NCBI GenBank assembly: GCA_965250085.1
Contig: OZ252287.1
Coordinates: 448,001 to 512,000, forward strand
From: Candidatus Altimarinota bacterium
GTDB taxonomy: Bacteria > Patescibacteriota > Gracilibacteria > CAIRYL01
DNA length: 64,000 bases
Direction: 5' to 3'
The position numbers were made by a program, and so were the translations under genes. Under the pieces are notes generated by a model. That model was not told the DNA's origin and did not search any database. It was given only the letters and a program-made list of their open reading frames with translations. This document shows, piece after piece, positions 10,508-60,012 of the stretch. Numbering within the stretch: the stretch's first letter is position 1; every line of letters begins with the position of its first letter.

Positions 10508-10510
10508 AAG

Positions 10511-10925
10511 AAAATTTTTGAATTTTTAATTTTATAATTTTTAAATAAATTCTAAATCTTAATTTTTAAACAACAATCATTAACTCGAATTTTTCTTTAT
10601 TTTAGCAAAAATAAGGGTAAGTTCGTGTGCTTCTTTCCACAATTTTCTGCATTTCGTTCGCTTCTTTGGTGCAAATTGATATTTTATTCCGAAAATCCTT
10701 CTTAGAACTTGCTTGATTGGCTTCCATATAATTTGCTCTAATACTTGTTGCAGAGCGAATCAACTGTCGAATTATTGGTTTTGTAATCTCGTTTTGATCT
10801 AACTCTTTCAGAAATATAATTACTGATTCTCCAAATTTTTCCGTTCTTTCTTCCAAGTCATATTCCATTGAGAACATTAAAAATTATAATTTATTTATAA
10901 AATTAAAAATTAGAAATTTAAAATT
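10511..10925. mobile_element. Putative element: four-helix-bundle gene enclosed by inverted AT-rich heptamer arrays (family A)
   Basis: Arms 10511-10570 and about 10876-10925 are imperfect reverse complements built of about 7-bp units. Confidence 0.55.
10580..10868 (-). pseudogene. Four helix bundle protein (TIGR02436/23S rRNA IVP-like), internally deleted and frameshifted
   Basis: MEYDLEERT..QLIRSATSIRANYMEA..SKKDFRNKISICTKEANE then +1 frame CRKLWKEAHELTLIFAKI; the usual T.YWL helix is missing. Confidence 0.85.
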
Positions 10926-13620
10926 ACTCTGTAAGTACCATGACCACATACAAGGTACCATCTGGAGCTACAAAAAATCCAATCCCGATATTCGTATATT
11001 TTTCTCGGAACAAAGCTGATGTATCCTCTTTGTACGAAAGCGAATCAAGTAATCTTTGAAAAGAACTTTCCGTATATAAAATTGAATCGACTGAGGCATT
11101 TTTTCGTTCTTGAATGAGAATGGCTGTTTCAAAAAAATCCTGCCCATCAGGTGCTTCATATCCAAAAAATCCCTCATCTGCCATTTTTTGGGCCCACTCC
11201 TGTGAAGCTTCGCTTAAATGGGCATCCAAGTTGAGTGCACCCTCTCTCTGGCTATTCAGAACAGACACCATTTGATTCTGGTACTCAGCAATAGAATCGT
11301 TAGAAAGCGCGTCCTCTGCAAAAAGCTGTGTGACTAAAATTGATCCTGATTCATCTCTTGCAATTCCAAATCCAGCTCTTGTGACATCAGGGTTCAAAAT
11401 ATTCTGTCGGTGAATAGCACTTCTCATGAGTCCATGATGAGCCAAGGAGTAATTTATATCGGCTGCAATGTTTTCGAGCACGCTCGCGCCAATGTCAAAA
11501 CGAGAGACAAAATCACTTGCCCCCTTCCCCTCTGGAGAAATGTGAGAAAAATATTTGTTTTCAGCCATATCATCGGATCTCAGCTGCGCAAGATCATTCA
11601 TATTGTCGTGAAGCATAAGCTTTGAAAGACCTTGTTTTTCCCGAACAATATTTATGAGCCGAAGGAGTTTAAGCCGGTCACGCTTCAGATTAATTTCCGT
11701 CACATACTCCTGCTCATGGCGGGGATTGATGTCAAAATAATCCGGCAGCAGTGGTGCGAGTCCTTCGTAATATACCGGTGCATTGAGAAGTGCAAATCCT
11801 TCTTTGGAATTGATCTCCACAATATGTGTTCCTATTTGTTCGGGAGTGAAGCGAAAAGTAAATGTTTGCCCTTTCGTAATCAGTGGCACAGTAACAGCTT
11901 CTCCATTCGGAAGAATAATCGCACCATCTTCTCGTATTTCACCATTAAAATTTCCAGAAAAAACAATATCATTCCCAAGAGAAAATGTGGACGGCAATGT
12001 GTGGGATTTTATTTTTCCCTTATCTCCTTCAAAAAATTGATGTCCTGTGAGTAAAAGATCCAATTTGACTGGAGGAGAAAATGCTCGAGAAGGATCTATA
12101 GAAAAATTTGATGAAAGGTCCACAGCAGAAATCCTCACCTCTGCTTTTCCGGTATGAAAAACCTCAAAAACTTGAGGTGGAAGCGTAAATTCTTCAGTTC
12201 CGTTTATAAAAAACTCAAGACTCTTCTCTTCTTGTGAAAATAAAACCCGAAAGAGTTCTGCTCCCATTCCATTCCACTGCAAGACATATGCACCATCACG
12301 AAAAGTGCCTCGCAAATTTTGCACTGAAGAGGAAATTTCTGTATTCCCCAAAAGACACGGAGCATCAACAATTTCAATAGGATAGACGGTGCTTCTCCCG
12401 CTGCGACCAGTAACTATTCCTATTTCAAACGAACCTTCATTTAGAAACGGGAGAGAGAGCATAAAATTACCATTCACTACTGGCACAGAGAAAACCCTTT
12501 GCTTTTCCTCTTCACTCCAAAAAACTGTAACAATATCTGTATTCTGGGCAGTCCCTTCAAGAAAAAATATTTCATTTTTCCGAAACAAAGTAGGGAGTGA
12601 CTCACTCAAAGTGATACCCTCAAATGCGGTAGCGGGTATTACTTTGCGTGCAGAAGGAAAAGAGCAAAGAGTCTCGAATGCTCCTGACTGAATACTGCTA
12701 TCTATTTGCTGTATTTCACCTCTGAGGAGCCCTCGCGACGGAGGCTCAAGGACAGAAAATGCCGCTTTACTGAGATCCAGATTTCGATAAGCCACATATG
12801 GACCCCTGTCATTTACTTCCACTACGGTAGATTTTCCTGAAGAGAATGAAGTGACTAAGAGTTTGGTTCCAAATGGGAGTGTGCGATGCGCAGCGGTAAA
12901 CTTGGCGTTATCAAATCTATCTCCGCTGGAAGTTGTGCGTCCATTAAAAGAATCTCCATAATAACTCATCACCCCTATCGGATAAGAATAGGTTTGTGCT
13001 CCATCTTGAAATCGATGCATGATCTCTACGAGTTCTCCTCTGCTGAGTGCTTTGCCAGGATTTACTTCAGAAGAAAACAGAATTGATTTCTTTTTTGCTT
13101 GATCATAATATGGCGCAAACCATTCATATCGAGAAACATTTTCGAATGGGCTAGAAGAAAGTGTGCTCTTTACTGGAATTTCATTGGTGAGAAACACCAT
13201 TTTGAGTGCCTCAGCTTGATTGATGGTCCGCATCGGCTCAAATCTTCCTTCCGCAGTTCCATCAATGATCCCTCGATTTTTTCCCTCTCGTACAAATGTA
13301 CTGAACCACTCTTGCGTAGGTACGTCTGGAAATATCTCTCTGAGCGGTGGCTCTGGTTCAGGAATATTTGATCCCAGCAGAATAATTTTGAGGCTTTCGG
13401 CCCGATTGACCGCTTTGTCTGCTTGAAATGTGTTATCCCCAAATCCATTGACCACTCCATGATTCCTGAGGGCTGTAACGGCTTCAAAATGCGGATGAGA
13501 TGGCCCAATATCTAGGAAAAGATTGTCCTCTGCAAACGCAGTGGCAAGACTCAAAACAATACTGAGTACAAATATGAGGAAAAAATACCTCTTGATATGT
13601 TGAAAGTTTTTAAAGCTCAT
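10924..13620 (-). CDS. S-layer homology protein with RlpA-type lytic transglycosylase (DPBB) and two CAP/SCP domains
   Basis: SLH (VNRAESLK, INQAEALK, LSRGELVE), RlpA (TAAHRTLPFGT, VNDRGPY, LDLS), CAP (YFSHISPEG, ENIA, LMRSAIHRQNIL). Confidence 0.88.
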   Translation of the reverse strand: MSFKNFQHIKRYFFLIFVLSIVLSLATAFAEDNLFLDIGPSHPHFEAVTALRNHGVVNGFGDNTFQADKAVNRAESLKIILLGSNIPEPEPPLREIFPDVPTQEWFSTFVREGKNRGIIDGTAEGRFEPMRTINQAEALKMVFLTNEIPVKSTLSSSPFENVSRYEWFAPYYDQAKKKSILFSSEVNPGKALSRGELVEIMHRFQDGAQTYSYPIGVMSYYGDSFNGRTTSSGDRFDNAKFTAAHRTLPFGTKLLVTSFSSGKSTVVEVNDRGPYVAYRNLDLSKAAFSVLEPPSRGLLRGEIQQIDSSIQSGAFETLCSFPSARKVIPATAFEGITLSESLPTLFRKNEIFFLEGTAQNTDIVTVFWSEEEKQRVFSVPVVNGNFMLSLPFLNEGSFEIGIVTGRSGRSTVYPIEIVDAPCLLGNTEISSSVQNLRGTFRDGAYVLQWNGMGAELFRVLFSQEEKSLEFFINGTEEFTLPPQVFEVFHTGKAEVRISAVDLSSNFSIDPSRAFSPPVKLDLLLTGHQFFEGDKGKIKSHTLPSTFSLGNDIVFSGNFNGEIREDGAIILPNGEAVTVPLITKGQTFTFRFTPEQIGTHIVEINSKEGFALLNAPVYYEGLAPLLPDYFDINPRHEQEYVTEINLKRDRLKLLRLINIVREKQGLSKLMLHDNMNDLAQLRSDDMAENKYFSHISPEGKGASDFVSRFDIGASVLENIAADINYSLAHHGLMRSAIHRQNILNPDVTRAGFGIARDESGSILVTQLFAEDALSNDSIAEYQNQMVSVLNSQREGALNLDAHLSEASQEWAQKMADEGFFGYEAPDGQDFFETAILIQERKNASVDSILYTESSFQRLLDSLSYKEDTSALFREKYTNIGIGFFVAPDGTLYVVMVLTE

Positions 13621-13742
13621 AAAGTTGTAAAGTTTTTTTCAAAATCCAAAACTTGCGAAATCCTAGCAAATTTACACAGTAAAATCGAGTGATCGTAGAT
13701 CATAAAATGCGAAACATGTATCATATCTCTCGAACTTTGTCT

Positions 13743-13775
13743 CAATTCGTAATTCGTCATTTGTAATTCGCAATC
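13743..13775. repeat. Heptamer repeat array (AATTCGT family)
   Basis: aattcgt aattcgt catttgt aattcgc; related units at about 5853-5880, 24798-24815 and 36768-36800. Confidence 0.65.
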
Positions 13776-13776
13776 T

Positions 13777-14379
13777 ATGTCTCTTCCTCCAAACATTGAA
13801 ACTCTTATCGAAGAATTTGCCCGTCTCCCAGGGGTTGGTCCTAAAACTGCTCAACGATTTGTGTTTTTTCTCCTGAAGAAAGAAGAGCATGAAAGAAGCC
13901 AAATGGCACATGCACTTTTTGATCTCACCAAAGGACTCAAACTCTGTAGCAAGTGCTACTATTTTGCTGACGATCTCCTCTGTGAAATCTGTAAAAATCA
14001 AAAAAGAGACATTCACACTCTTTGTGTCGTAGAAGACGCACTGGATGTCATCTCTATAGAAAAATCTGGTGCTTTTCGCGGAAAATACCATCTTTTGGGA
14101 GGACTTATCTCTCCTCTTGATGGTATTGGTCCGGAGAAACTCAAGATAGCGGAACTAAAAAAGAGGATTGATTCATCACATGGGGAAATAACAGAAGTCA
14201 TTCTTGCAACAAACCCCACGATAGAAGGAGAGGCTACTGCTACATATATTTGGAAAATGTTTGAATCTATGAATATTAAAATATCACGTATTGCCCGAGG
14301 ACTTCCCGTAGGAGGAGATCTGGAGTATACCGATGAAGTCACACTTGCCAGAGCCATTGAAAGCAGAATAGACTTTTAG
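13777..14379 (+). CDS. recR: Recombination mediator RecR
   Basis: LPGVGPKTAQR, C4 zinc finger, YHLLGGLISPLDGIGP, EVILATNPTIEGEATA. Confidence 0.98.
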   Translation: MSLPPNIETLIEEFARLPGVGPKTAQRFVFFLLKKEEHERSQMAHALFDLTKGLKLCSKCYYFADDLLCEICKNQKRDIHTLCVVEDALDVISIEKSGAFRGKYHLLGGLISPLDGIGPEKLKIAELKKRIDSSHGEITEVILATNPTIEGEATATYIWKMFESMNIKISRIARGLPVGGDLEYTDEVTLARAIESRIDF

Positions 14380-14380
14380 G

Positions 14381-14490
14381 AAAATTTCTAATTCCTAATA
14401 TCTAATAAAATCCTAATGACAAATGTATAAAACTTAAAATCTTTATATTTAGAAATTAGAGCAATGAGACATTAGAAATTTGAGAATGAA
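14381..14490. repeat. Gene-less inverted heptamer-array element, family A-like
   Basis: aatttctaattcctaatatctaataaaatcctaat ... tttagaaattagagcaatgagacattagaaatt directly after recR stop. Confidence 0.65.
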
Positions 14491-14801
14491 ATCATGAAGA
14501 TTGCAAAAAGATATTATAAAATATAAATTTAAGTATTGTAATTTCCTTTCTTCTTAATTTATGAGATAATAGACTTAGAAAAGGTCTTTAAAAAAAGAAT
14601 AATTTTTTGAACCAAGAACTCAATATCTCTGAGAATATGAAACCAATTTTTGATACTTTCCACACCACCTTCTATTTTCCTTTGTTACTTGGACCTCCAG
14701 TAGGATCACTTGCTCTCGCAATATCCTCCGTGAGGGAATAAGAAACTTTTTTTCAAATATTTTTTCCAAGATTTTTACATTATTTTTAAGCAACACATTA
14801 T

Positions 14802-16664
14802 ATGAATAATCGGCTTGATAACTGGATATCCAAAGTGGTATCTGAAGATGCAAAGAAAAAACCTGCATCTCAAAACAATGAGAAGAAACAAAAATCTTTT
14901 CAGAAGCATAGAGCTCAGCAGAAAAAGCTATCTCCTCATTCAAAATCCAAAAAATCCTTTTCATCTCCCAAAGGAGGAAAAGGGAAGCTCAGGGCCATAC
15001 CTCTAGGAGGGCTCAATGAAATTGGGCGCAACTGTATGTGCTTTGAATACGGCAATGACATCATCCTCGTGGATGCGGGGTTTGAGTTTCCAGAGGTAGA
15101 TATGTATGGAGTGGATTATATCCTCCCTGATACACGATACGTGGAAGGGAAAAAACAAAATATTCGCGGTATTGTGATTACACATGCCCATTTGGATCAC
15201 ATTGGAGGACTGAGATATCTTTTGCCAAAACTCGGCTATCCACCAGTATATGCTCCCCCACTCTCAGTAGGGCTTATTGAGAAACAACTCAATGAATACC
15301 CTGAAGTGCGAAAGCGTGCAAAAATTCATCGTATTGATCCCCAGAAAGATGTTCTTAAACTTGGTGCGTTTCAAATAAAATATTTTCATGTGAACCACTC
15401 TATTCCAGATGCCAATGGACTCTATATCCAGACGCCGGCGGGGAATGTGGTGCACACTGGAGATTTTAAGTTTGATTTTACTCCTGCAGATGGAGTTCCC
15501 GCAGATTTTCACCGTATGACAGAAATTGCTAAATCTGGCGTAGATGTGGTCTTTTCTGATTCTACCAATGCTCAAAAGCCAGGATTCTGCACTTCTGAAA
15601 AAGTAGTAGCAGAAACCCTCGAACAGATTATTCGGGACACCAAACAAGGGCGACTTGTCATTACTTCTTTTTCTTCTGTACTCGGGAGATGGCAACAAAT
15701 TATCGAACTCGCCGGAAAATATGATCGCAAGATCTATGTCACTGGACGCAGTCTGCTCGAAAACTTGAAAATTGCTGCAGACCGTGGATACATCAAGGTG
15801 CCCCAAGGACGAATTCACAAGGTGACCAAGCGCATGCACGATGTTCCCAGAAATAAGCAGCTTATTATTACTACCGGAGCACAGGGAGAAGAAAATGCAG
15901 GACTTTCCCGTATTTCTCGAGGAGAACATCACATGATCAAATTGGAAAAAGGTGATAGTGTGATTTTTTCATCTTCTCCTATCCCTGGTAATGAAAGACA
16001 AATGACCAAAGTCATAGATGCACTCTACAAACTCGGAGCAAAGGTCATTACCAATAGAACTCTTGATACTCATACCACCGGACACGCTTGTCAGGGGGAT
16101 CTCAAGCTTATGTATGCACTTCTCAAACCAACCAACATTGTGCCCGTGCATGGGGAGTTTCACATGCGCGTAGATCACGCACGAATGGTTCGGGAAGATC
16201 TGGGATATGAATCCCAAAATGTCGCTGTCATTTCTAACGGAGATATATTGGAAATACTTCATGGAAAAATACAAAAATCTCGGGAAAAAGCCCCTGGAGA
16301 ACGCATTTTTGTAGATGGAAAAATGGTAGGAGATATTGGCAACGATGTTCTGGAAGACAGAAAAGCAATGATGAAATCAGGAGTCGTTTCTTTTACTTTT
16401 GCTGTAGACAAAGCAAAACGAAGAGTCTACAAATCGCCCAATATCCAAAGCCTTGGCTTTACCTATCCTCATGAGCGGGAGCGATTGATGGAAACTCTGA
16501 AAAAGGAGTCCATCACACTTGTAAACCAAGTGCTCAGCAAATACCCAGATCCTCGACAAAAAGGAGGACTCATCCGTCGGGATATTGAAAAAAAACTTTC
16601 AGGAAAGATTGTAAAACTCACTGAACGTGAACCACGGGTTTTGATAACACTGGTGGTGAATTAA
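14802..16664 (+). CDS. rnj: Ribonuclease J
   Basis: LGGLNEIGRN, THAHLDHIGG, HTGDFK, HTTGHA, PVHGE beta-CASP motifs. Confidence 0.97.
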   Translation: MNNRLDNWISKVVSEDAKKKPASQNNEKKQKSFQKHRAQQKKLSPHSKSKKSFSSPKGGKGKLRAIPLGGLNEIGRNCMCFEYGNDIILVDAGFEFPEVDMYGVDYILPDTRYVEGKKQNIRGIVITHAHLDHIGGLRYLLPKLGYPPVYAPPLSVGLIEKQLNEYPEVRKRAKIHRIDPQKDVLKLGAFQIKYFHVNHSIPDANGLYIQTPAGNVVHTGDFKFDFTPADGVPADFHRMTEIAKSGVDVVFSDSTNAQKPGFCTSEKVVAETLEQIIRDTKQGRLVITSFSSVLGRWQQIIELAGKYDRKIYVTGRSLLENLKIAADRGYIKVPQGRIHKVTKRMHDVPRNKQLIITTGAQGEENAGLSRISRGEHHMIKLEKGDSVIFSSSPIPGNERQMTKVIDALYKLGAKVITNRTLDTHTTGHACQGDLKLMYALLKPTNIVPVHGEFHMRVDHARMVREDLGYESQNVAVISNGDILEILHGKIQKSREKAPGERIFVDGKMVGDIGNDVLEDRKAMMKSGVVSFTFAVDKAKRRVYKSPNIQSLGFTYPHERERLMETLKKESITLVNQVLSKYPDPRQKGGLIRRDIEKKLSGKIVKLTEREPRVLITLVVN

Positions 16665-17018
16665 GGATTGATTGCAATCAATCCTTACCACTTAATACCA
16701 CTTCGCTTTCAAAATGATACGCAAATGCGCCCAAGCTATCAAAGAATCAGTTGTAAGGTGTCAGTACATCAGTAGGGACGTATCACTAATACGTCCTTTT
16801 CTGGATGTACTGTAGAGACAGGTCGCGACCTAGTTTCTTACCACATTGGATGCACATCGGTAGGGGCTCAAAATTTTGAGCCCCTACTGGTCGTTCTGAC
16901 AGGGCAGTTGAAAAACTCAAAAACTTGTCGGTTCAATTTTGCAAATTGAACTTTATTTTTCTAGTCGAGTTTTAAAGATTAGGACGAAACATTATGATTC
17001 AGGTTGTAAACCTGAACC
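16662..17018. repeat. Cluster of six different REP-like palindromes
   Basis: 16662-16687, 16772-16797, 16812-16841, 16860-16887, 16931-16951, 16998-17016; several have GTAG..CTAC ends. Confidence 0.8.
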
Positions 17019-17036
17019 AATTAAAAATACCGGAGC

Positions 17037-17627
17037 CTAGTTCGCAAAACCGAGGGGGTGATCGTTATCTTCAATAGTCACAGTGCCCTCTCCCAGAAGA
17101 GTATCGCCAGAAACATCTGTTATCTGGATAATAAATTCTTCATCTTCTTCTGTTTTGCTATCATCAACAAGAGAAATTTGCAAATATATAATCCAGCCAA
17201 AAGAACCATCAGATGTGTCATTAACAACTGTATCAACGGACAAATAATCATCTCCGGCCTTAGCGGATCCCTCTATCGTCTTGACCCTAAACCGAGAGTA
17301 GTGTGTTCCATCTTTCGTACCAAGCTCTCTCAAACGAACATTTGCTGTTTTATGTCCTTCTGTAACAGTAGGGCTTCCAACCTCGAAGGCAATATCACTT
17401 GTAAGAGGAGGAGAAGCCTGAGGCAGATCAGGTGTAGTGGGAAGTTTAATAGAAAGAATATCATTATAACATCCTTCAGCAGCAACTCCTGTCAGAGCGA
17501 CCAATACTGGAAGCGCTAGTCGCTGGCGAAAGCCCTTTCGCAGTCGGGTAAGCGCTCCATCTGGAGGAGTAACGGATGCTTCATGTGGAGAAGGGAGAGA
17601 GTCAATGTGTTGAGGATTTTCTTTCAT
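17037..17627 (-). CDS. Calx-beta domain surface (lipo)protein
   Basis: Hydrophobic stretch ending AAEGC; VTEG..TIEGSAKAGDDY..ISLVDDSKTEEDEEFIIQI..GTVTIEDND. Confidence 0.8.
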   Translation of the reverse strand: MKENPQHIDSLPSPHEASVTPPDGALTRLRKGFRQRLALPVLVALTGVAAEGCYNDILSIKLPTTPDLPQASPPLTSDIAFEVGSPTVTEGHKTANVRLRELGTKDGTHYSRFRVKTIEGSAKAGDDYLSVDTVVNDTSDGSFGWIIYLQISLVDDSKTEEDEEFIIQITDVSGDTLLGEGTVTIEDNDHPLGFAN

Positions 17628-17658
17628 AGTGGAAAAGATAAAAAAACAAATGATCAGG

Positions 17659-18738
17659 TTATTCTGATCGAGAAATTTCCCTTTGTAGTTGATCTGTTAC
17701 GGTTCTGGCATGTCTTAGCCTCGATTCGGAAAGGTCTATAGGATATGTCTCTCTGAATGCTCTTACTTGTTTTCCATCACCAGTTTGAAAAATATATTGA
17801 TTCTCAGCTACGCTGTACCAGACCTGAGGATCAGGATACCCTCGACTGATCAAGTCCTTTCGTATTTCTGGGAGTATTCTCTCAGTCGCATATTTATCTG
17901 CCTCTTCTTCGGTACAGTTGTTCCAATTCTTCACTTTTTTTCTTCTTCCTTTTTTCTTGCCTTTTTCAAAAGGGCATACTTCCAACTCCCACCCTGACTG
18001 CTCCATAGCATACCAATCATCTATAGGAAAAGCAGGACGAGCGGCATAATCGCCATTTGTACCGAACTCTTGGGTTGTGGCTTTCCTTTGCAGCTCATCT
18101 GCTATGCTTTGGGCAGATCTCGTGACTGAGTCGTTGTCAAAGTCTGTAGGTCTCATATCTCTATAGGCTCTTACTTGCGCTCCATTCTTTGGCTCAAAAA
18201 CGTATTGATTCTCAGGTTCACTATACCAGACGTTAGGATCGGGATACCCTCGACTGATCAAGTCCTTTTTCAGATCTGGGAGTACGCTCTCAGCCGCATA
18301 CTGATCCGCCTCTGACTCATCACACTCCCGCCAACGTCTTGTTCTTTCATAAGACTTCACAGTAATATTATCAAGAAGATGATCGGCATAAAATTCACGA
18401 GAATACACAGAAAGACCATCACTATGATCACGCAAAAATTCATAAATACCACTATTAGAATCATCAACATAATCAATACGATATTGTTCGGATTCGGTCC
18501 TACAATTCTTCCTCTCATAATCATAATGCTCGTACCGTATGGGGAGAGATGAAGGAAGAGTATTCTCTTCACTGAATGCTTGATCCGCACCTGACATCAT
18601 TATTGCGACCATGACAAATTGTAATCGATTTTTACGAAAGCTTGTTACAAGATTGACCAGCGCTTCTTTACCAGAAGATATTTTACTTGGACCTCCTTCT
18701 CGGGCAGAAGGTGCTTGAGATGTTTCATTGCTTTTCAT
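17659..18738 (-). CDS. Hypothetical secreted/anchored protein with two internal repeats
   Basis: 359 aa; duplicated LPx.KDLISRGYPDP.VWYS..ENQY.F unit; identical 27-bp blocks at 17834-17860 and 18242-18268. Confidence 0.8.
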   Translation of the reverse strand: MKSNETSQAPSAREGGPSKISSGKEALVNLVTSFRKNRLQFVMVAIMMSGADQAFSEENTLPSSLPIRYEHYDYERKNCRTESEQYRIDYVDDSNSGIYEFLRDHSDGLSVYSREFYADHLLDNITVKSYERTRRWRECDESEADQYAAESVLPDLKKDLISRGYPDPNVWYSEPENQYVFEPKNGAQVRAYRDMRPTDFDNDSVTRSAQSIADELQRKATTQEFGTNGDYAARPAFPIDDWYAMEQSGWELEVCPFEKGKKKGRRKKVKNWNNCTEEEADKYATERILPEIRKDLISRGYPDPQVWYSVAENQYIFQTGDGKQVRAFRETYPIDLSESRLRHARTVTDQLQREISRSE

Positions 18739-18884
18739 AGAAATAATTATAAGAGAGAATATACTTTTACTACTTAAAACTTCCTAGTGTCAACTTTTAT
18801 CTCTTTACAATATATATATATATTGCTTAATAAATATTAGGCCTGCGTCTTTCGGATTTGTGATTTCACATCTACAATACACAC

Positions 18885-19712: not shown

Positions 19713-19806
19713 ATCTCCCCTAACCCCTCTTTGCAAAAGAGGGGGAATAAAACATCTCCCTTAACACCATGCCTGGCGGCAGACAGGAGGGGGATTGAGG
19801 GGGTTT
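19712..19806. repeat. Two-armed C-rich/G-rich hairpin element with nested palindrome
   Basis: aatctcccctaacccctctttgcaaaagaggggga ... tctccctt[insert]agggggattgagggggtt after stop codon. Confidence 0.7.
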
Positions 19807-19840
19807 ATTTTTTCACATTATTCCCCAGTCTCTGTAATCT

Positions 19841-19868
19841 GTAGAGACAGCTCGCGAGCTGTCCCTAC
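19841..19868. repeat. GTAG-type REP palindrome
   Basis: gtagagacagctcgcgagctgtccctac; close relative of 16812-16841. Confidence 0.8.
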
Positions 19869-19930
19869 GCTCCATTGTGAAAGACACAAAAAGCATGCTA
19901 CATTTTCTGAGCTCAATAAAATATGCAGCG

Positions 19931-21085: not shown

Positions 21086-21116
21086 AGCAGCCAATGGTCA
21101 GAGGTAGGAACCGACT

Positions 21117-21593: not shown

Positions 21594-21699
21594 ATGAGAA
21601 TTATTAAATTTTTCATAACTATATATATTTTTTAACATAAAAAATATATATTTGTCAAATATTTTACCTTTCCCGGTTTTCCCTATACACTTTTTGTAT

Positions 21700-23064: not shown

Positions 23065-23105
23065 TATTATGGTGACATACTTCTTGTTTTTAACCCCTTC
23101 ACAAG

Positions 23106-24023: not shown

Positions 24024-24041
24024 AAAGGGGTATTTTATTAA

Positions 24042-24751: not shown

Positions 24752-24846
24752 TTTATTAATTATGGGTTAGATCAAGAATAAAGAAGCAGATACAAGAAAA
24801 TTACGAATTACGAGATAGGAATTCGATTCATAAAATTCTTTTTATA

Positions 24847-24875
24847 GTAGGAACGTAGCAGTGCTACGTTCGTAC
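24847..24875. repeat. GTAG-type REP palindrome
   Basis: gtaggaacgtagcagtgctacgttcgtac. Confidence 0.75.
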
Positions 24876-24885
24876 GAATTCCATA

Positions 24886-26565
24886 CTAACATGACACCGC
24901 CTGCCCAGTATCTGCATCAATAATATTTCCCGCCGCGTCATACATAGAGTTCCCATCTGCATCGATCTTGTGAGTCCCGCTAATGCTTCCGCCTTCTGGA
25001 CAAATGATTAAATAGGGAGGACCGATGCGGATCATCATAGCTCCCTCTCCTCCTTCGCACGGACATTTCTCCAGTTCTTTTTCAATGTCTGCCATTTCTT
25101 CTTGGAGTTCCTCGAGATCCTCTTTGAGCTTACGAATTTTTTCCCGCAATTTGGATGAAGACTCACGTGTCTTCCAAAACTCTTTGAGGGCGTCTGTCAT
25201 TCGTTCTGCAGCAGCTTCATCTGGACAGAAAAACTCTCGGTCTTGACTGCTCACTTTTCCGGTAGATTGTCCGTCTTGCACATCTCCGCCAGGGTTTTGA
25301 CCGGGATCACATCCGGCTTCGGCAATAAGTGCATCCAGATCAGTATTGAGCTCATCCTCACCACCTTCCGCATTTGCCAGCTCTTGTTCAGCGGCAGTAA
25401 CCTCACCTTCCAATATCACTTCCTCAGCCTGAAGTTCAATAAATTTCTGCCCGAGTCCAAAGCAATCAGGACATTCATCTCCCGATACCTTCTCTTCCTT
25501 TTTCTCTTTTTTCTTTTCGTCATCATCACCATCTCCGTCTCCATCTCCATCCCCGTCCCCGTCACCTGATGGCGCCGGTTTGCACTCCATCTCTCGTATA
25601 AGCCGAAAATCCGTATCATCACCCACAAACATTCCGGTCTTTTTGGTAATTTTGATCGGCGCTTGATCTGGCTCTTCAAGACGAATACCTGAGCTCGGTC
25701 TATCAGTTGTCATTTCAGCTTTGACACCTATGATGATTTCATGAACAAATTTTACTTTCCCGGGTTTCACGCAGGTAAATTGCCCGACATAAACATGTTT
25801 GTTTTTTGCAGGATCAGATATCAACCCATTGGGTCCAAGTGGTGGAGCAGATACATCTGTCTTTTTGGGAGCTGATGCGATCTCATCGGGACTCACGATT
25901 CCGTTGGGAAAGGCAGTAAGCTCCCCCTTAATATTCCATGGATCAGGCCGTGAAATCGTGACACGAGTGGTTCCCTGTACATCGGGACCAAAGGTCACAT
26001 TTGGTCCTCCTACTATTTCAATTATCTGAGTAGTTTGGGTTTTGGTGGTGGTGGTAGTTACGTCAAATTGCTCTCCTATAAGCGCTTCGGCTGGGTGGAT
26101 CATTTCGGCTTCAAAGGTATCTTCTGTGATGATCAATCGACTAAAGTGTGACATCTCTCCTCGTATTACCACTTCTTTCCCTGATGCATCGGGTTCTACC
26201 GCCACACTCACTTTTTCCAACACCCCATTTGAGAGATGATATACCGCTGGAACCGCATTTGGATTAGGAAGTGTAGTAGTCACAGCAAATTCTGCCGGCT
26301 GAGAAAAAGTGAGTCCATTTGGCTCAAAATTATAAATGGCGAGAGCCGGTACGTCATTGAGTGTCACGGTGAGATCTTGATCTGCACGAGAAATAGAAAC
26401 ATCTTCCATTCTCACATCTTCCGGGAGAATCTTCTCCTCCATATTCAGTTTCACCTGATGGTCATCAGAGAGGATCGTATTTCCTGTTTTTCGCATCGAC
26501 ATCACTCCAAAAATAAGAGCGATAAGCACTACAAGACCAACAATAACAAGAAGTATTTTTTTCAT
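24886..26565 (-). CDS. Membrane-anchored surface protein (ZU5-like module, GD repeat, Cys-flanked coiled coil)
   Basis: Start MKKILLV plus TM; YNFEPNGLTFSQPA..EMSHFS; (GD)n tract; coiled-coil C-terminus. Confidence 0.75.
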   Translation of the reverse strand: MKKILLVIVGLVVLIALIFGVMSMRKTGNTILSDDHQVKLNMEEKILPEDVRMEDVSISRADQDLTVTLNDVPALAIYNFEPNGLTFSQPAEFAVTTTLPNPNAVPAVYHLSNGVLEKVSVAVEPDASGKEVVIRGEMSHFSRLIITEDTFEAEMIHPAEALIGEQFDVTTTTTKTQTTQIIEIVGGPNVTFGPDVQGTTRVTISRPDPWNIKGELTAFPNGIVSPDEIASAPKKTDVSAPPLGPNGLISDPAKNKHVYVGQFTCVKPGKVKFVHEIIIGVKAEMTTDRPSSGIRLEEPDQAPIKITKKTGMFVGDDTDFRLIREMECKPAPSGDGDGDGDGDGDGDDDEKKKEKKEEKVSGDECPDCFGLGQKFIELQAEEVILEGEVTAAEQELANAEGGEDELNTDLDALIAEAGCDPGQNPGGDVQDGQSTGKVSSQDREFFCPDEAAAERMTDALKEFWKTRESSSKLREKIRKLKEDLEELQEEMADIEKELEKCPCEGGEGAMMIRIGPPYLIICPEGGSISGTHKIDADGNSMYDAAGNIIDADTGQAVSC

Positions 26566-26647
26566 AAGGGGAAATAAGAAGCCTATAATGCGCAATTGTC
26601 TCCTCTGTAAGAGAAAATTGCAAATTTTATTTCTCTTTTGGAGCCAA

Positions 26648-26731
26648 TTACCAAGCCGATCCCTTTGTTAACACCGCTACAATAATCATAAGAGATATCA
26701 ATGCATAGAGCGCATTAATCACGAACAGATA
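26648..26731 (-). pseudogene. 3'-end remnant of a DUF1761 gene (diverged copy of 27450-27533)
   Basis: ttaccaagccgatccctttgttaacaccgc vs ttaccaagctgacccttttgttaacaccgc; encodes YLFVINALYAL..VLTKGSAW. Confidence 0.85.
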
Positions 26732-26941
26732 CGAGAAGAATATGAAAAAGCAGAGTTTGAAAACTTGCTCCCTTCAGCCCAATAGGAATTCCTCACGGGA
26801 GAAGAAATTATGAACATTCTGGACTTAAAGCCGGGAAAAAAAGTAGGAGAAATAAAATCTGCTTTGAGAGATGCACAGCTGGGAGGTGAAGTAAAAACGA
26901 AGAAAGAAGCGAAAAAGTGGACACAGAAGAGCTTTGGATAA
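26724..26941 (+). pseudogene. 3'-end remnant of cca (diverged copy of about 22820-23020) with internal TAG
   Basis: REEYEKAEFENLLPSAQ*EFLTGEEIM..; mostly synonymous differences; TAG at 26783-26785. Confidence 0.9.
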
Positions 26942-27015
26942 AAGCCTTAGTAGAATCTCTTGACATATATATATATATAGACTAGTGTAACTCCTCTACT
27001 TTCTATTATATTTTT

Positions 27016-27258
27016 ATGAGAAATCCATCAGAATTACAAGCTGCAGCGACAGCTGCACACGATGCAGGGGATTATGACGTGGTAAGACTCCCAAGCGGAC
27101 CATTGCAAGGAGGAGCAATATCAACGAGAGATTATATTACTCTAGTTGCAAGAGGAAAAGTAGATTGCGTTTTTGGTATGCCTCCCACTTACATTAAATT
27201 TCACGATACAGATCTTGGTGCAGGAATCAGAAAAATGTTTTTGAAAACCGTACGCTAA
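27016..27258 (+). CDS. Small hypothetical protein
   Basis: 80 aa ORF preceded by TTGACA-N17-TAGTGT. Confidence 0.55.
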   Translation: MRNPSELQAAATAAHDAGDYDVVRLPSGPLQGGAISTRDYITLVARGKVDCVFGMPPTYIKFHDTDLGAGIRKMFLKTVR

Positions 27259-27449
27259 AAGGTAAATAGATTGTACTGAATGCAGTCGAAGTATACTTTC
27301 ACTAGCGCGCGTTTGTAACCTTTGTTGGTCCAAGGTTGTACCTTGAACCTTAACGTTTTTTATTGTATCCATCTTAAAAAAAAGGTTTGGAGCTGTATTC
27401 TGAAGCTTTTCTTTACGAACTTTATAAACTTTCTACTTTCAACTCAACT

Positions 27450-27872
27450 TTACCAAGCTGACCCTTTTGTTAACACCGCCACAATAATCATCATCGCCAC
27501 TAATGCGTACAAAGCATTGATTACAAACAAGTATGGAGATTTTTTCTCCCAGAGCACCGCTCCCAAATAAATGGGAGCCTGAATCCCAAGCCAAATCAGA
27601 ACTCCGTAAATAAAGCTCTCCTCTAAAGATGGTGGATTCAAAAATCCAAATATCATTGCCAAGATATATATCGATATGATTTGGACAAGGAGTCCAAAAA
27701 ACAAACCCTTCATCGCTTCTCCGACGCCGGGATTTTCTTTATTCATTCCAGTGAATCTCATCCATTGTTTTCCAAACAAAAGTGGAGAATACCAGATCCA
27801 TCCCAGAAGCATCGTGAGAATCGATGCGATAAGAACACGAACCAAATCAATGTCAGAACTGAGAAAATCCAT
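27450..27872 (-). CDS. DUF1761 family membrane protein
   Basis: LGWIWYSPLLFGKQWM motif, 4 TM. Confidence 0.88.
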   Translation of the reverse strand: MDFLSSDIDLVRVLIASILTMLLGWIWYSPLLFGKQWMRFTGMNKENPGVGEAMKGLFFGLLVQIISIYILAMIFGFLNPPSLEESFIYGVLIWLGIQAPIYLGAVLWEKKSPYLFVINALYALVAMMIIVAVLTKGSAW

Positions 27873-27934
27873 CGGAAAGAGAAAAAGGGAAACAATGTAA
27901 ATATACTCCTTTTATTTTTAACTCGGAAGAATAA

Positions 27935-27966
27935 AAAGATCCCCACTCTTGAGAATGGGGATCTTT
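27935..27966 (-). terminator. Intrinsic terminator-like hairpin
   Basis: aaagatcccca-ctcttgaga-atggggatcttt, U-tract on the minus strand after the SLH gene. Confidence 0.75.
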
Positions 27967-27988
27967 AATTTCACGAAAAGAAAATATT

Positions 27989-29626
27989 TTATATCTTTCC
28001 AAGTTGACTGAGCTTGTAGAGCACTTTTGCCACTTCTCCTCTTGTCACCAATTGTGTGGGATACAAGCTGTTTCCGACAAACAGAGAATTGTCATAAGAG
28101 TACTTCCCGTAGCCAAAATACCACTGGCTGGTATCAGAAGCATCATTATACGATGTCCCTGCCGCTGGCATATCGTCACTTACATTTCGGAGGATCAGGG
28201 CAAGGAATTCAATACGATTGACACTGCGTGCTGGACGATACAACCCCGCATCAGCTCCAGACTGGTATCCAGTAATCATTTCCAGATCGACTCCTCTGCA
28301 GATATATTGTTGTGACCACGCACTTCCCGTGACATCTGGGAATGGATTCCCATCACAGTAATCTTGGTTTTCATCAAAAAGTCCAAATGCTTCGAGTGAT
28401 ATTTTGGCGATTTGATCACGTTGCAAAATTTCACCTGGACCAAATGTCCCGTCTCCATATCCCGTCATAGCACCAATGCTCTGCACATATTCGAGCGCAT
28501 CACAATCAGGATGATCAGCTGGAACATCAGTAAATTCTGCGCATGTATCATCATTTATTAGCTCTGGCTCTGGCTCTTCATCGGAAGCCATGACTTCTAC
28601 TGTCACTTTGTCTTCGTCTGTTCCAGCATCGTTTTCTACCATGACATGAACCGTATATTCACTATTTGGCACGGTGCTTCCTCCAGATTCTTCTCCATCC
28701 CAGACAGCATTTACTGTTCCTGCCGAAGTTGCTTCTGCATCTTTGAGCTTTCGAACTTCAACTTCATTTTCATTGAGGACAGAAATGGTAACATCAGCGT
28801 CATTGCTCAGGTCAAAAGTTACGGTAGTGGTGTCTTGATTCCCATCATCATCTGGTGAAAAAGGGTCTATTGTCATTCCCAAATCAGAAAGAGCAGGAGC
28901 TTCATCGGTAGTAACGGTCACTGTTCCTGTGGCAAGATCATTAGTATTCGCATCTCCTCCACAATATCCAGAATCGGCATACATCCTCCAGTCGTAATCC
29001 CCTTCTGCCGCCGCACCACCCCCCAGATCTCCATTCCAACTGGCAGTATGGTCTCCTGTGTTGAGGGGCCCATAAAACTCAATAAGCTCTCCGTCTACAC
29101 GCAATACAATACAAGCTGGCACTACTGTCTCCAGTGAAAAATCAATTTCATAGTCATTTCCACTGGTAATGGAATAGACTGTGGGGGCGTCATTTACCGT
29201 AATGTTTGATTCTTCCGTCACTTCAAACTCATGCATCAGTACATTGGTATCATTCGCAAACAGATCTGTACCCTGTATACGAAGTTCGTATGTGCCGGGC
29301 AAAGGATATCCTCCGGCAAACATTCCATCCCAACCAAATGTTTTTTGATCATTGGCGATTACCCAGTGACTATCGATTTCAAATTCCATCTCGGTAATAT
29401 GTCCCAGCGGACCTTTTACAAAAAAGTCCATGTCTACATCTTCTCCTTGGATTTCGCTAAGGTCATAGACAACGTCATACATTCCTCCTTCGTACACGTT
29501 GTATTCTGTTGCCGGAGTGGGATTGAAGGTGATCGTTGGCGGCTCTGCGAAGACAAGCGATGAGAAGAGGAAAGATCCAAATAAAAAGAACGCAAAATAC
29601 AAAAAACGAGTCATGTATTGATTCAT
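27989..29626 (-). CDS. S-layer homology protein with FlgD-Ig-like domains
   Basis: Signal peptide, WDG motifs and FSPDDDGNQD (FlgD_ig-like), three C-terminal SLH repeats; start placed at MNQYMTRF. Confidence 0.85.
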   Translation of the reverse strand: MNQYMTRFLYFAFFLFGSFLFSSLVFAEPPTITFNPTPATEYNVYEGGMYDVVYDLSEIQGEDVDMDFFVKGPLGHITEMEFEIDSHWVIANDQKTFGWDGMFAGGYPLPGTYELRIQGTDLFANDTNVLMHEFEVTEESNITVNDAPTVYSITSGNDYEIDFSLETVVPACIVLRVDGELIEFYGPLNTGDHTASWNGDLGGGAAAEGDYDWRMYADSGYCGGDANTNDLATGTVTVTTDEAPALSDLGMTIDPFSPDDDGNQDTTTVTFDLSNDADVTISVLNENEVEVRKLKDAEATSAGTVNAVWDGEESGGSTVPNSEYTVHVMVENDAGTDEDKVTVEVMASDEEPEPELINDDTCAEFTDVPADHPDCDALEYVQSIGAMTGYGDGTFGPGEILQRDQIAKISLEAFGLFDENQDYCDGNPFPDVTGSAWSQQYICRGVDLEMITGYQSGADAGLYRPARSVNRIEFLALILRNVSDDMPAAGTSYNDASDTSQWYFGYGKYSYDNSLFVGNSLYPTQLVTRGEVAKVLYKLSQLGKI

Positions 29627-29789
29627 GAGAAAACGGGTAAAAGGGAAAATGTGTCTCCAATTTAACTCTCTCTGTCCAGAGAAATCAATAAAAAATACTT
29701 CCGCACCTTTCTCTTTTTTTACAAAGAACTTATCTTGCTCGCAGAAATAAAAAAATGTACAGTTCTCGAGCCTCTTTTTCGTGGCATCA

Positions 29790-32132
29790 ATGGCAAAAAT
29801 GATACGAATGGCGCACGTCGCCAAACATCTTGGCATTCCTTCTCAACAACTCAGAACATTGCTCTCTGAGGTCAATTTTGGCATCAAACCAACAGATCGT
29901 GAAGTGGAAGAAGGTGTCGCTTCTGGCATCGTGCGAGTAGCTTCCCAAAGACTTGGTATCAAATGCGAACCCTTTCCAGTCGAATCAGCAGAAGGATTAG
30001 AAGATGAAGCGCTCCAAGACACTGAGGAAACAGAAGTGTCATCTCAAACCGAAAAGAAAACAGCTCCTTCTGCTCTTTCAAAACTCAGCACTATTGCCGA
30101 AAAATCAAAGGAAGATATTCAAAAGAAGAAACAAGAACAACAAGAATCTCCTAAAAAACCTGGAATTCTCAGAAAAATAGAAATTTCACCTGAAGCGGCT
30201 GCAGAAGCGAAAGAACGAATGAAAGAGCAAGAAGAAGAACGCAGAAGACTGAAAGAAGAAAGAGAGCAAGAATCTCTGGAGCGCAAATTGCAACAAAAGA
30301 AAAAACAAGAACAGATTTTTACAAAAAAAGAAGGAACGGTAGAGCTTCCTGAAATGTTACCCGTAAAAGAGTTTGCAGAAAAAGTTGGTGTTCCCACCTC
30401 ACAGATTTTGAAGTCACTTATCAAAAATGGAGTTATGGCAACTCTCAACACCACTATTGATTTTGAAACTGCCGCTATTATTGCTGAAGAATTTGAAGTT
30501 CAGGTCAGAAAAGGACAAATAGAAGCTTCCTCTGAAAGTCTCTTTTTGGGGAACTTGAAAGAACTCCTCAATGATGAGCCAGAAAACATGACTGAAAGAC
30601 CTCCGGTAATAGTTGTCATGGGGCACGTTGATCACGGAAAAACGAGTATTTTGGATGCTATCCGTAAAACAAAAGTGGTGGAAGGAGAGGCGGGTGGTAT
30701 TACTCAGCACATTGGTGCATATCAGGTAGAAAAAAATAACAGGCTCATTACTTTTCTCGATACTCCCGGACATGAAGCTTTTACTTCAATGCGTGCTCGA
30801 GGTGCCAAAACAGCTGACATTGCTATCCTTGTTGTTGCTGGTGATGAAGGCATCAAACCGCAAACTGTAGAAGCTATTAATCATGCCAAAGATGCAGAAG
30901 TGCCCATTATTGTGGCAATGAACAAAATGGATAAACAAAATGTAAACCCAGATAAGGTAAAAGGAGAACTCGCAGAGCACGAACTTCAGCCAGAAGACTG
31001 GGGTGGAGAGACTCCTGTTATCCCTGTTTCAGCGTATACAGGAAAAGGGATTGAAGATCTTTTAGAAATTGTTGTGTTGCAGGCTGATCTTCTGGAGTTA
31101 AAAGCGAATTCAAATCGATCTGCAGTGGGAACTGTCGTCGAGGCACACTTAGATCCTTCCATGGGACCTGTCGCTACTATCTTAATAAATACCGGGACTC
31201 TCAAGGTAAAAGATACATTTTTGCTGGGGACACTGGGCGGGAGAATTAAAACAATGATTGATGATACTGGTACAAAGCTTTCTGAGGTCCCTCCTTCTGG
31301 AGCAGTGCAAATTTCTGGCATCAGTAAAGTTCCCGAAGCAGGAGATATTTTGCAAGTGTTTGAAAACGAAAAACTCATGAAAGCAAAGCTTTATGAAATA
31401 AAGACACTCCATTTGGAAAACCACGGCATCGGACTTGGAGTTTCTGAAATTATCAATCAATTACAACACGGGGAGATGAAGTTTCTCAAAGTTGTCCTTA
31501 AAGCAGATACAAACGGCTCATTACAAGCAGTTGAGCAGGCCTTAGCAAAAATAAAACATGAAGAAGTCGGAGCTAAAATAATCCATTCAGCGGTGGGGGC
31601 CATTACTGAAACTGATGTCATGATGGCAGCAGCGAGCCAGGGCGTAGTAATTGGATTTAATGTAATTATATCTCCTCGAGTGAAAAGAATTGCTGAAAAA
31701 GAAGGAGTAGAGATTATGAATTACGATATCATTTATAAGCTAACTGAGGACGTGGAAAAAATTCTGACCGGACTCCTGGAACCCGAGGAAATCGAAACGA
31801 TTCATGGCTCAGCAACAGTAAAAGCAGTGTTTTATACTCAGAAAAAAATGATGATTGTTGGATGCTCTGTCGATTCGGGAAAAATAAAACAAAAAGCCAA
31901 AGTTCGTATTTTCCGAAAGGGAGAAGGAGAAAACGAAGAAGGAGAAACCATAGAAATGGAAGTCCAAGCAGGAGAAGGTGTCATTGCATCACTTCAGCAT
32001 TTTGAATCAAAAGTGAAAGAAGTGGAAAAAGGGAACGAATGTGGAATCCAATTTGAAGGAAAGATTTCAATTGAAGAGGGAGATCGTATTGAGTGCTATC
32101 AAATTGAAAGCAGAATCAGAACACTGAAATAA
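29790..32132 (+). CDS. infB: Translation initiation factor IF-2
   Basis: [32 protein letters not shown]. Confidence 0.98.
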
Positions 32133-32204
32133 GTGATCAGTTGTCAGTGAATCGGTTATAAGTATTTAAAATATACTGACTACCGACTGCTTACTACTGA
32201 CAAC
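32130..32204. repeat. Gene-less inverted heptamer-array element, family B
   Basis: tgatcag ttgtcag ... actgact accgact gcttact actgaca between two convergent stop codons; same units as 32551-33000. Confidence 0.8.
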
Positions 32205-32534
32205 TTACCCTATTACTCGAACGATAAGTTCAACCACCCCATACGCTACGAGTGCGAGAATGAGTCCAAACATTGTCCATTTGAATGTCCGCTTTGCCTG
32301 AGCCTGTTTTTCATCATCTCCTGCCGAGAGAGCATATTGAATACCACCGATGACCAACATAAGAACTGCAATAATCCCTGCAACCGTGAGGAGCACGTCG
32401 GAAAATTGACTGAGTATTTCTGGAATATTTACATCCTCTCCTCCCGGAAGATCTGTAGGAGGAGTATATTCCCCTATTTCCTGAGCAGAAGCGAGGTGCG
32501 GAAGGAAAAATAAGAATATGAAGAGTTTTTTCAT
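32205..32534 (-). CDS. TrbC/VirB2-like pilin (T4SS pilin family)
   Basis: Signal peptide plus IAVLMLVIGGIQYALSAGDDEKQAQAK..GLIL. Confidence 0.85.
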   Translation of the reverse strand: MKKLFIFLFFLPHLASAQEIGEYTPPTDLPGGEDVNIPEILSQFSDVLLTVAGIIAVLMLVIGGIQYALSAGDDEKQAQAKRTFKWTMFGLILALVAYGVVELIVRVIG

Positions 32535-32550
32535 GGATCAGAATTATAAA

Positions 32551-33000
32551 TAGTAAGTAATCAGTTGTAAGTTGTCAGTTGTAAGTTGTCAGTAAAATTA
32601 TTTTTGGACCTTCATCCAACCATCAAGGGTTTTACCTATTTCATCAGCAAGATCCGAAAGATCTCTATAATTTTTGAAAGAAATATACTTAAGATCTTGT
32701 GCGAGTAATAGCTGATATTTTACTTCTTCCAATGAGCTTTGAGAAATATTATAAAAGTGCAGCGAGTCATTTTTGCCCTTTCTTTTAAATCCTTCTGCAA
32801 TATTTGATGGAATTGAAATCGCAGCCCTTCTTATCTGCGAAGTGAGCCCAAATGTCTCTGATTTTGGAAATTTTTCACTCAGCTTATAAACTTGTAAAAC
32901 AAACTCATGGGACTTTTGCCAGGCAATAATCTCTGTAAATTTTTTGATAATCATGAGAAAAAGTAAAACTGACTACTGACTCACTGACTACTGATTTACT
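32551..33000. mobile_element. Putative element: intact four-helix-bundle gene enclosed by inverted heptamer arrays (family B)
   Basis: Left arm taatcag ttgtaag ttgtcag ttgtaag ttgtcag (32551-32595); right arm actgact actgact cactgact actgatt (32968-33000). Confidence 0.6.
32598..32954 (-). CDS. Four helix bundle protein (TIGR02436/23S rRNA IVP-like)
   Basis: AWQKS..FPKSETFGLTSQIRRAAISIPSNIAEG..SLEEVKYQLLLAQDLKYI. Confidence 0.95.
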   Translation of the reverse strand: MIIKKFTEIIAWQKSHEFVLQVYKLSEKFPKSETFGLTSQIRRAAISIPSNIAEGFKRKGKNDSLHFYNISQSSLEEVKYQLLLAQDLKYISFKNYRDLSDLADEIGKTLDGWMKVQK

Positions 33001-33002
33001 CT

Positions 33003-33590: not shown

Positions 33591-33625
33591 TATTATGATA
33601 ACCTTTACTCTTCCTCCAGTATAAT

Positions 33626-59929: not shown

Positions 59930-59946
59930 TTGTATTTGAATATTTG

Positions 59947-60003: not shown

Positions 60004-60012
60004 ATTGCTCTC

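Follow-up and report, generated by a model that had tools for sequence, protein, structure and literature searches.

Four-helix-bundle genes between inverted heptamer arrays: candidate cassettes at gene junctions in a Candidatus Altimarinota genome

The stretch of DNA analysed here, referred to as the window, comprises 64,000 nucleotides (genome positions 448001–512000) of the single-contig, 1.37 Mb genome of a Candidatus Altimarinota bacterium (GCA_965250085.1, contig OZ252287.1), and its G+C content is about 40%. It contains two genes for small four-helix-bundle (4HB) proteins of the PF05635/TIGR02436 family, one intact and one truncated, each lying between two arms that are mutually inverted. 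A gene together with its arms is called a cassette below. An earlier note, made from the letters of the window, had proposed that such genes and their cognate arms form a novel mobile system. The features of the two loci are listed in window coordinates; arms carry no strand and are named in the orientation of the enclosed gene.

32598–32954, minus strand: intact 4HB gene of the main subfamily, 118 aa, PF05635/TIGR02436
32957–32997: 5′ arm of the intact cassette, an array of GTCAGTA-type units (array 32968–32994 in Tandem Repeats Finder, TRF)
32552–32594: 3′ arm of the intact cassette, the complementary array, TTGTAAG/TTGTCAG on the plus strand (TRF array 32563–32593)
33003–33590, minus strand: upstream host gene, a pilin of the type IV secretion system (T4SS) type, 195 aa
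32205–32534, minus strand: downstream host gene, a T4SS-type pilin, 109 aa, between an ACTGAC arm and a GTCAGT arm
10602–10877, minus strand: truncated 4HB gene of the divergent subfamily B, 91 aa; an in-frame stop removes the C-terminal part
10873–10930: 5′ arm of the truncated cassette, conserved AT-rich arm family of about 58 nt
10509–10566: 3′ arm of the truncated cassette, same AT-rich arm family of about 58 nt
10924–13620, minus strand: upstream host gene, a protein with SLH, DPBB and CAP domains
9206–10507, minus strand: downstream host gene, trmD fused to a GNAT domain

The protein encoded at 32598–32954 matched PF05635 (23S_rRNA_IVP) with 137 bits (cut-off 33.8) and TIGR02436 with 128.9 bits (cut-off 24). 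Residues R43, S47, N51 and E54, all present in this protein, are at least 90% conserved in an alignment of 24 proteins, and a polar motif R-x3-S-x3-N-x2-E is known to be conserved in the family (PMC3936711). A profile of ten close relatives, including the protein itself, matched the solved structures 2GSC (XCC0516; E 3.7e-37) and 2RLD (E 8.8e-14), both of which have five chains in one entry. The truncated protein scored 44.9 bits with PF05635 and 55 bits with TIGR02436, covering profile positions 8–80 of 106, and its similarity to an intact paralogue extends over residues 4–98 when one TAA is read through.

Both cassettes are located between co-oriented genes and neither neighbour is disrupted, so that the gene and Pfam map agrees with the earlier note on this point. 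In the truncated cassette the 5′ arm follows directly after the TAA stop codon of the CAP/SLH gene and the 3′ arm ends right at the ATG of the trmD-GNAT gene; the two arms are 78% complementary over 58 nt and are spaced by 306 nt. The 5′ arm of the intact cassette begins a few nucleotides past the stop codon of the upstream pilin gene, and the 3′ arm ends about 20 nt short of the downstream pilin gene's start codon. These arms pair with each other in several registers, over 24–25 nt at 75–76% and over 14 nt at 86%.

Each gene was said to be bracketed by inverted 7-bp arrays specific to it. The enclosure was found at both genes, but the specificity was not: the arms of the truncated copy match 14–17 further loci of the genome and those of the intact copy 11 (0–5 for the other copies, 0–0.2 for shuffled arms). 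Furthermore, the AT-rich arms of the truncated copy are a conserved unit of about 58 nt that is heptameric only loosely. This arm is present at about 20 loci with roughly 80–90% identity, and the corresponding arm is conserved in subfamily B cassettes of other genera. No Rfam family was found for the arms, no terminator was detected in a scan of 32000–33700, and no rRNA match was found in the window nor at the seven 4HB loci of the genome. PADLOC gave no match to a defence system for four of the proteins. A promoter-like sequence (CTTACA, 17 nt, TATAAT; 10/12 matches) lies at 32543–32571 on the minus strand, within the 3′ arm and just upstream of the pilin gene 32205–32534, and the arm units are themselves similar to −35 hexamers.

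The genome contains seven PF05635 matches, one of them a pseudogene outside the calls of open reading frames (ORFs), so six could be scored. By eye, all seven copies are flanked on either side by short, mutually inverted tandem units of some 7 nt, and the unit differs between copies; truncated and broken copies have retained their arms. When all 1342 ORF-called genes of the genome were scored for inverted repeats in their flanks, 4HB genes were found at ranks 1, 3, 7 and 9, the two of the window being ranks 1 and 7. The other top ranks were taken by multi-copy transposase-like genes and by the pilin gene 32205–32534 (rank 2 of 1342), which is itself also enclosed by an arm pair (32181–32208 with 32567–32594; 28 nt, 86%).

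The enrichment is not confined to this genome. PF05635 is patchily distributed among 41 related genomes, being present in 20 of them with 0–11 copies per genome, and the loci are alike in architecture with other units. A scan of species genomes, using an alignment of a subset of ten proteins, gave 80 loci from Bacteroidota, Planctomycetota, Chloroflexota, Proteobacteria, Acidobacteriota, Firmicutes, Desulfobacterota, Nitrospirota, the Candidate Phyla Radiation (CPR) and others. Among the 79 4HB genes that were scored, 59 surpass the 95th percentile of the controls, which were 352 genes taken from the same loci. Self-match of the flanks at period 7 had a median of 19/28 compared with 12/28, whereas periods 5, 6 and 9 showed no difference. 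Within 200 nt of the ORF we found 82 arrays of period 7 and 20 of period 8, any other period being represented by two at most; the rest of those loci contained 109 period-7 arrays in 533 kb. In an independent set of metagenome contigs, arms were found at 58 of 73 loci. The heptamer-arm enrichment that had been predicted for 4HB genes is therefore borne out.

The arm units follow the relatedness of the proteins. The share of locus pairs with at least one exact arm 7-mer in common was 7% below 40% protein identity, 19% at 50–60%, 48% at 60–75% and 100% above 75%, cross-phylum pairs included. This is the co-variation of protein and unit for which the earlier note had called. A metagenome replicate gave at least seven 7-mers common with the window arms in 16 of 25 loci with proteins of at least 60% identity, versus 4 of 48 below 60% (Fisher p 1e-6). 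At one Flavobacterium locus, both arms have changed together in the species that diverges most, with an arm score of 50 within the locus versus 15–28 between loci. The arms are inherited together with the 4HB gene.

The polarity of the arms depends on the protein subfamily. The 5′ arm has more G than C in 61 of 70 arm pairs and less in 6, and this polarity is unchanged if the gene is inverted. Subfamily B, to which the truncated copy of the window belongs, has the reversed polarity, with G<C in the 5′ arm at 13 of 15 loci and units of the YYAATTN kind (polarity versus subfamily, Fisher p 5e-11).

We compared the frequency of heptamer arrays in 19 related genomes, using 38–240 kb from each of 18 relatives and the whole of the window's own genome. 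In the nine genomes lacking PF05635 the median density of period-7 arrays was 3.0 per 100 kb, which equals their background for other periods, whereas the nine with at least four PF05635 genes had a median of 15 (range 4–48) over a background of about 2.5. The genome with three PF05635 matches, two of them broken, had 1.0. The number of PF05635 copies was correlated with the period-7 excess (Spearman rho 0.73; Mann-Whitney p 0.0014), and the contrast persists inside the window's own family and mostly inside its order. Among the sampled related genomes, heptamer arrays are in excess only in carriers of PF05635 genes. In Flavobacteriaceae, PF05635 was found in 46 of 61 genomes, and a sample of 145 kb, too little to interpret, gave 5, 0, 0 and 0 arrays in four carriers versus 0, 1, 0 and 0 in four non-carriers.

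In the whole window genome, TRF found 137 period-7 arrays, 100 of which lie within the 8.3% of the genome that is intergenic; the corresponding intergenic numbers for periods 5, 6, 8, 9 and 10 were 1, 4, 15, 4 and 6. The median array has 4.3 units. Three of the gene-less features are located in the window:

1508–1626: gene-less hairpin of the AT-rich arm family
32130–32210: hairpin without a gene, GTCAGTT/ACTGAC type, on which the IF-2 gene and a pilin gene converge
59930–60012 (genome 507930–508012): solo arm of the AT-rich arm family

Gene-less arm pairs near both cassettes had been noticed before, and pairing was indeed found at both places: 1508–1526 pairs with 1584–1602 (19 nt, 89%) and 1510–1526 with 1610–1626 (17 nt, 94%), and 32130–32148 pairs with 32175–32193 (19 nt, 74%). 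In the earlier note, these were taken to be parts of an autonomous/non-autonomous element pair. Homologues of both arm types are dispersed over the genome, but most arrays are solo, as detailed below. A tblastn search for decayed 4HB remnants in the gene-less hairpins gave only weak hits (E 0.015–0.03) besides the known copies, and on this basis decay of cassettes is not claimed as the origin of the hairpins.

Some arrays elsewhere in the genome deserve mention. At 536387–536582 (genome coordinates here and in the following), inverted arrays of the AGTTAGG/CCTAACT type surround 148 nt without an ORF; one frame there resembles by eye the C-terminal end of a 4HB protein, but was undetected by tblastn. 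A hairpin of about 85 nt with CAATGTA-type arrays occurs twice at 1250338–1250690, the nearly identical copies being 253 nt apart and flanking a short GC-rich palindrome. A gene resembling that for ribosome recycling factor has AATTACG-type arrays on both sides and a complete hairpin downstream (400686–401420). The AATTACG type is the commonest array family of the genome and is carried by no intact 4HB gene.

Comparison with two sister genera (genomes G004 and G001) showed what the junctions look like elsewhere. The order IF-2/pilin/pilin is retained in both. The gap between the pilin genes is 468 nt in the window genome, where it holds arm, 4HB gene and arm, and 50 nt with a solo array in G004, whereas the two genes overlap in G001. 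Likewise, the gap between the CAP gene and trmD is 416 nt in the window genome, reaching exactly from the TAA stop to the ATG, compared with an ATGA overlap in G004 and a 14-nt gap in G001. The cassettes were thus either inserted in the lineage of the window or precisely lost in both sister genera, and are discrete units either way. The solo array at the pilin-pilin junction of G004 (locus L237) has five units of an unrelated, TAGATTT-like kind, which indicates that arrays arise or persist at such a junction without the gene.

Relatives of the intact protein in metagenomes (49–74% identity, 80 loci) have no pilin matches beside them. In three of these cassettes the neighbours on the two sides were, by Pfam, PPDK and GDH, ligA and obg, and two BPD_transp_2 permease genes; on one side, metK or ftsZ is located upstream of two others and purD downstream of one. 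The cassettes at ligA/obg, at the permease genes, at metK and at ftsZ have arm units in common with those of the window. In 32 of 45 diverse loci the 4HB gene and its two neighbours all have one orientation, and the median gap is 4 nt from the upstream gene to the arm and 8 nt from the arm to the downstream gene.

A comparable anatomy is known from 23S rRNA intervening sequences, as in Leptospira and Coxiella, where a PF05635 ORF is looped out by a long stem of terminal inverted repeats. Work on the Coxiella intervening sequence (PMC4990558) describes an S23p ORF located in the loop, a terminal stem of 28 bp within which RNase III cuts, and tandem heptamers before the ATG whose copy number varies between strains. 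PF05635 ORFs are also present in rRNA insertions of CPR bacteria (bioRxiv 10.1101/2024.02.27.582315), and are known inside cas loci as well. Unlike the intervening sequences, the window cassettes are located between protein-coding genes and not in 23S or 16S rRNA, and they are accompanied by gene-less arrays throughout the genome. We think it somewhat probable that the two loci are discrete cassettes that share the build of ORF-bearing 23S rRNA intervening sequences, are located at operon junctions and come with derived gene-less arrays.

Such a cassette would be transcribed from the host operon, and pairing of its arms would give a long stem by which the insert is folded out of the mRNA. The stem would probably be cut by the host's RNase III, which is encoded in the window genome, as has been demonstrated by experiment for the Coxiella intervening sequence, and the flanking genes would be left functional. 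The long RNA stem around the ORF, proposed in the earlier note, is present in the minimum-free-energy folds, in which arm-arm pairing closes both cassettes. The 4HB protein, which is pentameric in the solved relatives, may bind runs of about 4–5 cognate heptamers on single-stranded nucleic acid, and thereby its own repeat. Such binding would connect it with how the gene-less arrays are maintained, spread or used, by analogy with RAYT and REPINs (see below).

A wider proposal is possible, although we hold it as tentative and rather doubtful. It states that PF05635 proteins are the partners of the bacterial heptamer repeats (STRR, TAACTGA, GGGAATC), that a pentameric ring reads about one heptamer per subunit, and that the cassette colonises operon junctions and rRNA helices and seeds or serves gene-less arrays. 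The ring is proposed because the solved relatives have five chains and the arrays have about 4–5 units. Ring dimensions stand behind the figure of about 7 nt per subunit, with ring-shaped repeat readers as the comparison. The heptamer repeats in question, that is the cyanobacterial STRR, TAACTGA of Beggiatoaceae and GGGAATC of Xanthomonas, are described as intergenic, often next to start codons and sometimes in convergent inverted pairs (PMC4692102, PMC4679880), the Xanthomonas arrays having mostly four units (PMC4692102). The window genome resembles these cases in its short intergenic tandem 7-nt arrays, over-represented relative to other periods. Unlike in our case, no 4HB protein is mentioned in those reports: the terms four-helix, S23 and intervening sequence are absent from PMC4679880 and PMC4692102, and the binding partner and the spread of heptamer repeats are left open there and in bioRxiv 10.1101/2022.06.06.494920. 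Supplementary files and subscription journals aside, the literature yielded no general link between PF05635 and heptamers, no report of their co-occurrence and no cassettes at operon junctions, and Coxiella was the only case found in which heptamers beside the ORF are noted.

Several observations weigh against the proposal of a discrete, spreading cassette. No target-site duplication was seen at the two junctions that were read base by base, and no catalytic domain was found, the Pfam matches of the cassette proteins being PF05635 and bAvd only; the absence of a transposase motif and of a clear duplication had already been remarked on in the earlier note. The three other intact paralogues that were aligned share 16–41% identity with the protein at 32598–32954. 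Together with the nearest metagenome relatives, which do not exceed 74%, this divergence gives no sign of recent movement. The window was found as contigs in only four sequencing runs, all of one sample and none listed as RNA, and compared over 14001–34000. No empty or excised form was present in the contigs of the four runs, which cannot show rare variants, and no joint skips the cassette, contrary to the excised junctions that were sought. One 25.8-kb contig bridges 26740–34000 in three of the four runs, and the sole joints had sides of 21–35 nt at repeats. Filled and empty alleles exist at the orthologous junctions of the window genome, G004 and G001, but no empty allele occurs in the contigs of the window itself. 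The Flavobacterium locus is orthologous and vertically inherited across seven species, a pattern of stable inheritance that would argue against mobility and that was seen at this locus only. In addition, its 5′ arm is set about 70 nt apart from the ATG, and a transcript made from the gene itself may therefore be without this arm.

The arms, too, are less regular than the above might suggest. Two of the six scored 4HB genes of the window genome have flank ranks of 674 and 1151, and clear arms are missing at 20 of 79 loci and at 43 of 113 in the set used for polarity. The folds have ordinary energies (z = −2.35 in one cassette, 0.0 in the second), and the stem of the intact cassette is lost in the centroid structure. 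The 19 genomes are kin and not independent, so the p-values of the co-occurrence analysis make the link look stronger than it is. Finally, co-variation of arms and protein is expected from co-inheritance alone, and does not show binding.

The gene-less arrays raise further objections, which bring in other explanations. Of the 100 intergenic arrays, no more than 26 have an inverted partner within 700 nt; gene-less arrays are thus mostly solo ones and not arm pairs. At co-oriented junctions the solo arrays are strand-biased, with the sense strand G<C in 40 and G>C in 15 (p 0.001), a bias that a regulatory role would explain no less well than mobility. This is consistent with a regulon, in which the 4HB proteins act as regulators that bind RNA (or DNA) sequence-specifically, with the arrays as operators and the arms as autoregulatory sites, and in which gains and losses come from ordinary horizontal gene transfer. 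The co-occurrence of arrays and 4HB genes at the genome level, the polarity specific to each protein subfamily and the narrow array length around the median are in line with it, as are the TAACTGA repeats just upstream of start codons, for which the binding protein was described as unknown in PMC4679880. However, the many similar copies of the 58-nt arm point to copying and not to an independent origin of operators, the cassettes fit exactly between the stop and start codons of unrelated housekeeping genes, and truncated and broken copies keep their arms. We consider the regulon rather unlikely, and give no better prospects to its further claim that gene-less arrays beside start and stop codons control host genes. 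It is compatible with the discrete cassette, and the two are not mutually exclusive.

A k-mer test for units of the resident 4HB genes did not discriminate, the gene-less arrays with such units being 83 of 93 compared with 67–73 in controls. That result would be expected if the association were passive, meaning that the arrays would be intergenic hairpins prone to slippage, either terminators or recombination hot spots, which arise alone, and between which small 4HB genes are apt to be captured or retained. Such arrays do occur in intergenic regions throughout the genome, and housekeeping genes (frr and a pilin gene) are flanked by them as well. A passive association is nevertheless very unlikely in our view: none of the nine sampled genomes without PF05635 has a period-7 excess comparable to that of the carriers, the arm units follow protein relatedness across phyla, the polarity switches with the protein subfamily, and the enrichment is specific to the 4HB family relative to the 352 control genes.

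The discrete cassette also shares features with known mobile and repeat systems. A RAYT gene is flanked by inverted cognate repeats, while gene-less REPIN hairpins are dispersed in intergenic regions; the repeat type follows the clade of the gene, and inheritance is often vertical. The 4HB gene with its cognate inverted repeats and dispersed gene-less hairpin copies is alike in this respect. It differs in that the protein is a 4HB protein and not an HUH/Y1 transposase, and in that the repeats are tandem heptamer arrays, mostly solo. Terminal inverted repeats, short dispersed gene-less derivatives and presence or absence between relatives are also features of MITEs (miniature inverted-repeat transposable elements) and insertion sequences (IS), but the cassettes have neither a transposase nor near-identical copies, and the target-site duplication was not seen. 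The multi-copy transposase-like genes of 216 and 314 aa have ordinary terminal repeats that are unrelated to the arrays. On the whole, the mobile-system interpretation is partly supported, and the system is a candidate only.

The accessory protein Avd of diversity-generating retroelements (DGRs) belongs to the same fold family, and the 4HB protein matches PF22296 (bAvd) with 57 bits, above the cut-off of 40. It has been considered that 4HB proteins work in an Avd-like manner with a reverse transcriptase, the arrays stemming from templated, telomerase-like repeat addition at DNA ends. The orientation of the arrays would agree with this, as the G-rich strand runs 5′ to 3′ toward the centre on both strands, which would be expected from the extension of both 3′ ends of a break. 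The genome also has one reverse transcriptase, with an adjacent ORF that is weakly 4HB-like. The NCBIfam Avd equivalog model (NF033474), on the other hand, matches weakly with 61.1 bits and thus below its cut-off of 80, and there is neither a reverse transcriptase nor a template/variable repeat near the 4HB cassette. The reverse transcriptase lies outside the window (genome 567490–568092), about 38 kb from the nearest 4HB gene, RVT_1 is present in only 9 of 41 relatives and was not found in six genomes with at least five 4HB genes each (G016, G018, G023, G029, G034 and G039), and the units differ between loci within one genome. The idea is extremely improbable and was rejected on the distribution of RVT_1, which shows no co-occurrence with the arrays.

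PF05635 is very widespread and has no known function, and heptamer repeats are over-represented in several bacterial groups. The link between them, consisting of flanking, polarity, co-variation of units and co-occurrence in genomes, makes both questions testable with a small protein and a short oligonucleotide. In this light, ORF-bearing intervening sequences of rRNA would be one of the habitats of a general cassette that inserts exactly between the stop and start codons of co-transcribed genes. If true, this would be a protein-repeat system across many phyla, of the kind of RAYT and REPINs but with another protein and another repeat logic.

Some minor observations concern other elements of the genome and its relatives. 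The 216-aa gene, at 24061–24711 (minus strand) in the window, has many copies, with a contig depth of 272–351 versus about 20 in the flanks. Its sequence suggests an IS1595-like DDE transposase, and the 314-aa gene, multi-copy elsewhere in the genome, reads as a putative IS30-like one. Two more intergenic repeat families (13 and 11 members) show no relation to the heptamer arms, and a 217-aa gene at genome 373587–374240 is flanked by palindromes of G-runs and C-runs. The only RVT_1 match of the genome belongs to a locus at 567490–568791 (locus L260, 1339–2802), where a 322-aa ORF has its best matches, below the cut-offs, among reverse transcriptases of group II introns and of defence systems. 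The 150-aa ORF upstream of it weakly resembles 4HB proteins in their C-terminal half (E 4e-4), and the locus may be a DGR with its own Avd. Matches in three genomes described as of the same class (G030, G157 and G294) contain 5–10 in-frame TGA codons, which suggests that TGA is read as a residue in these genomes.

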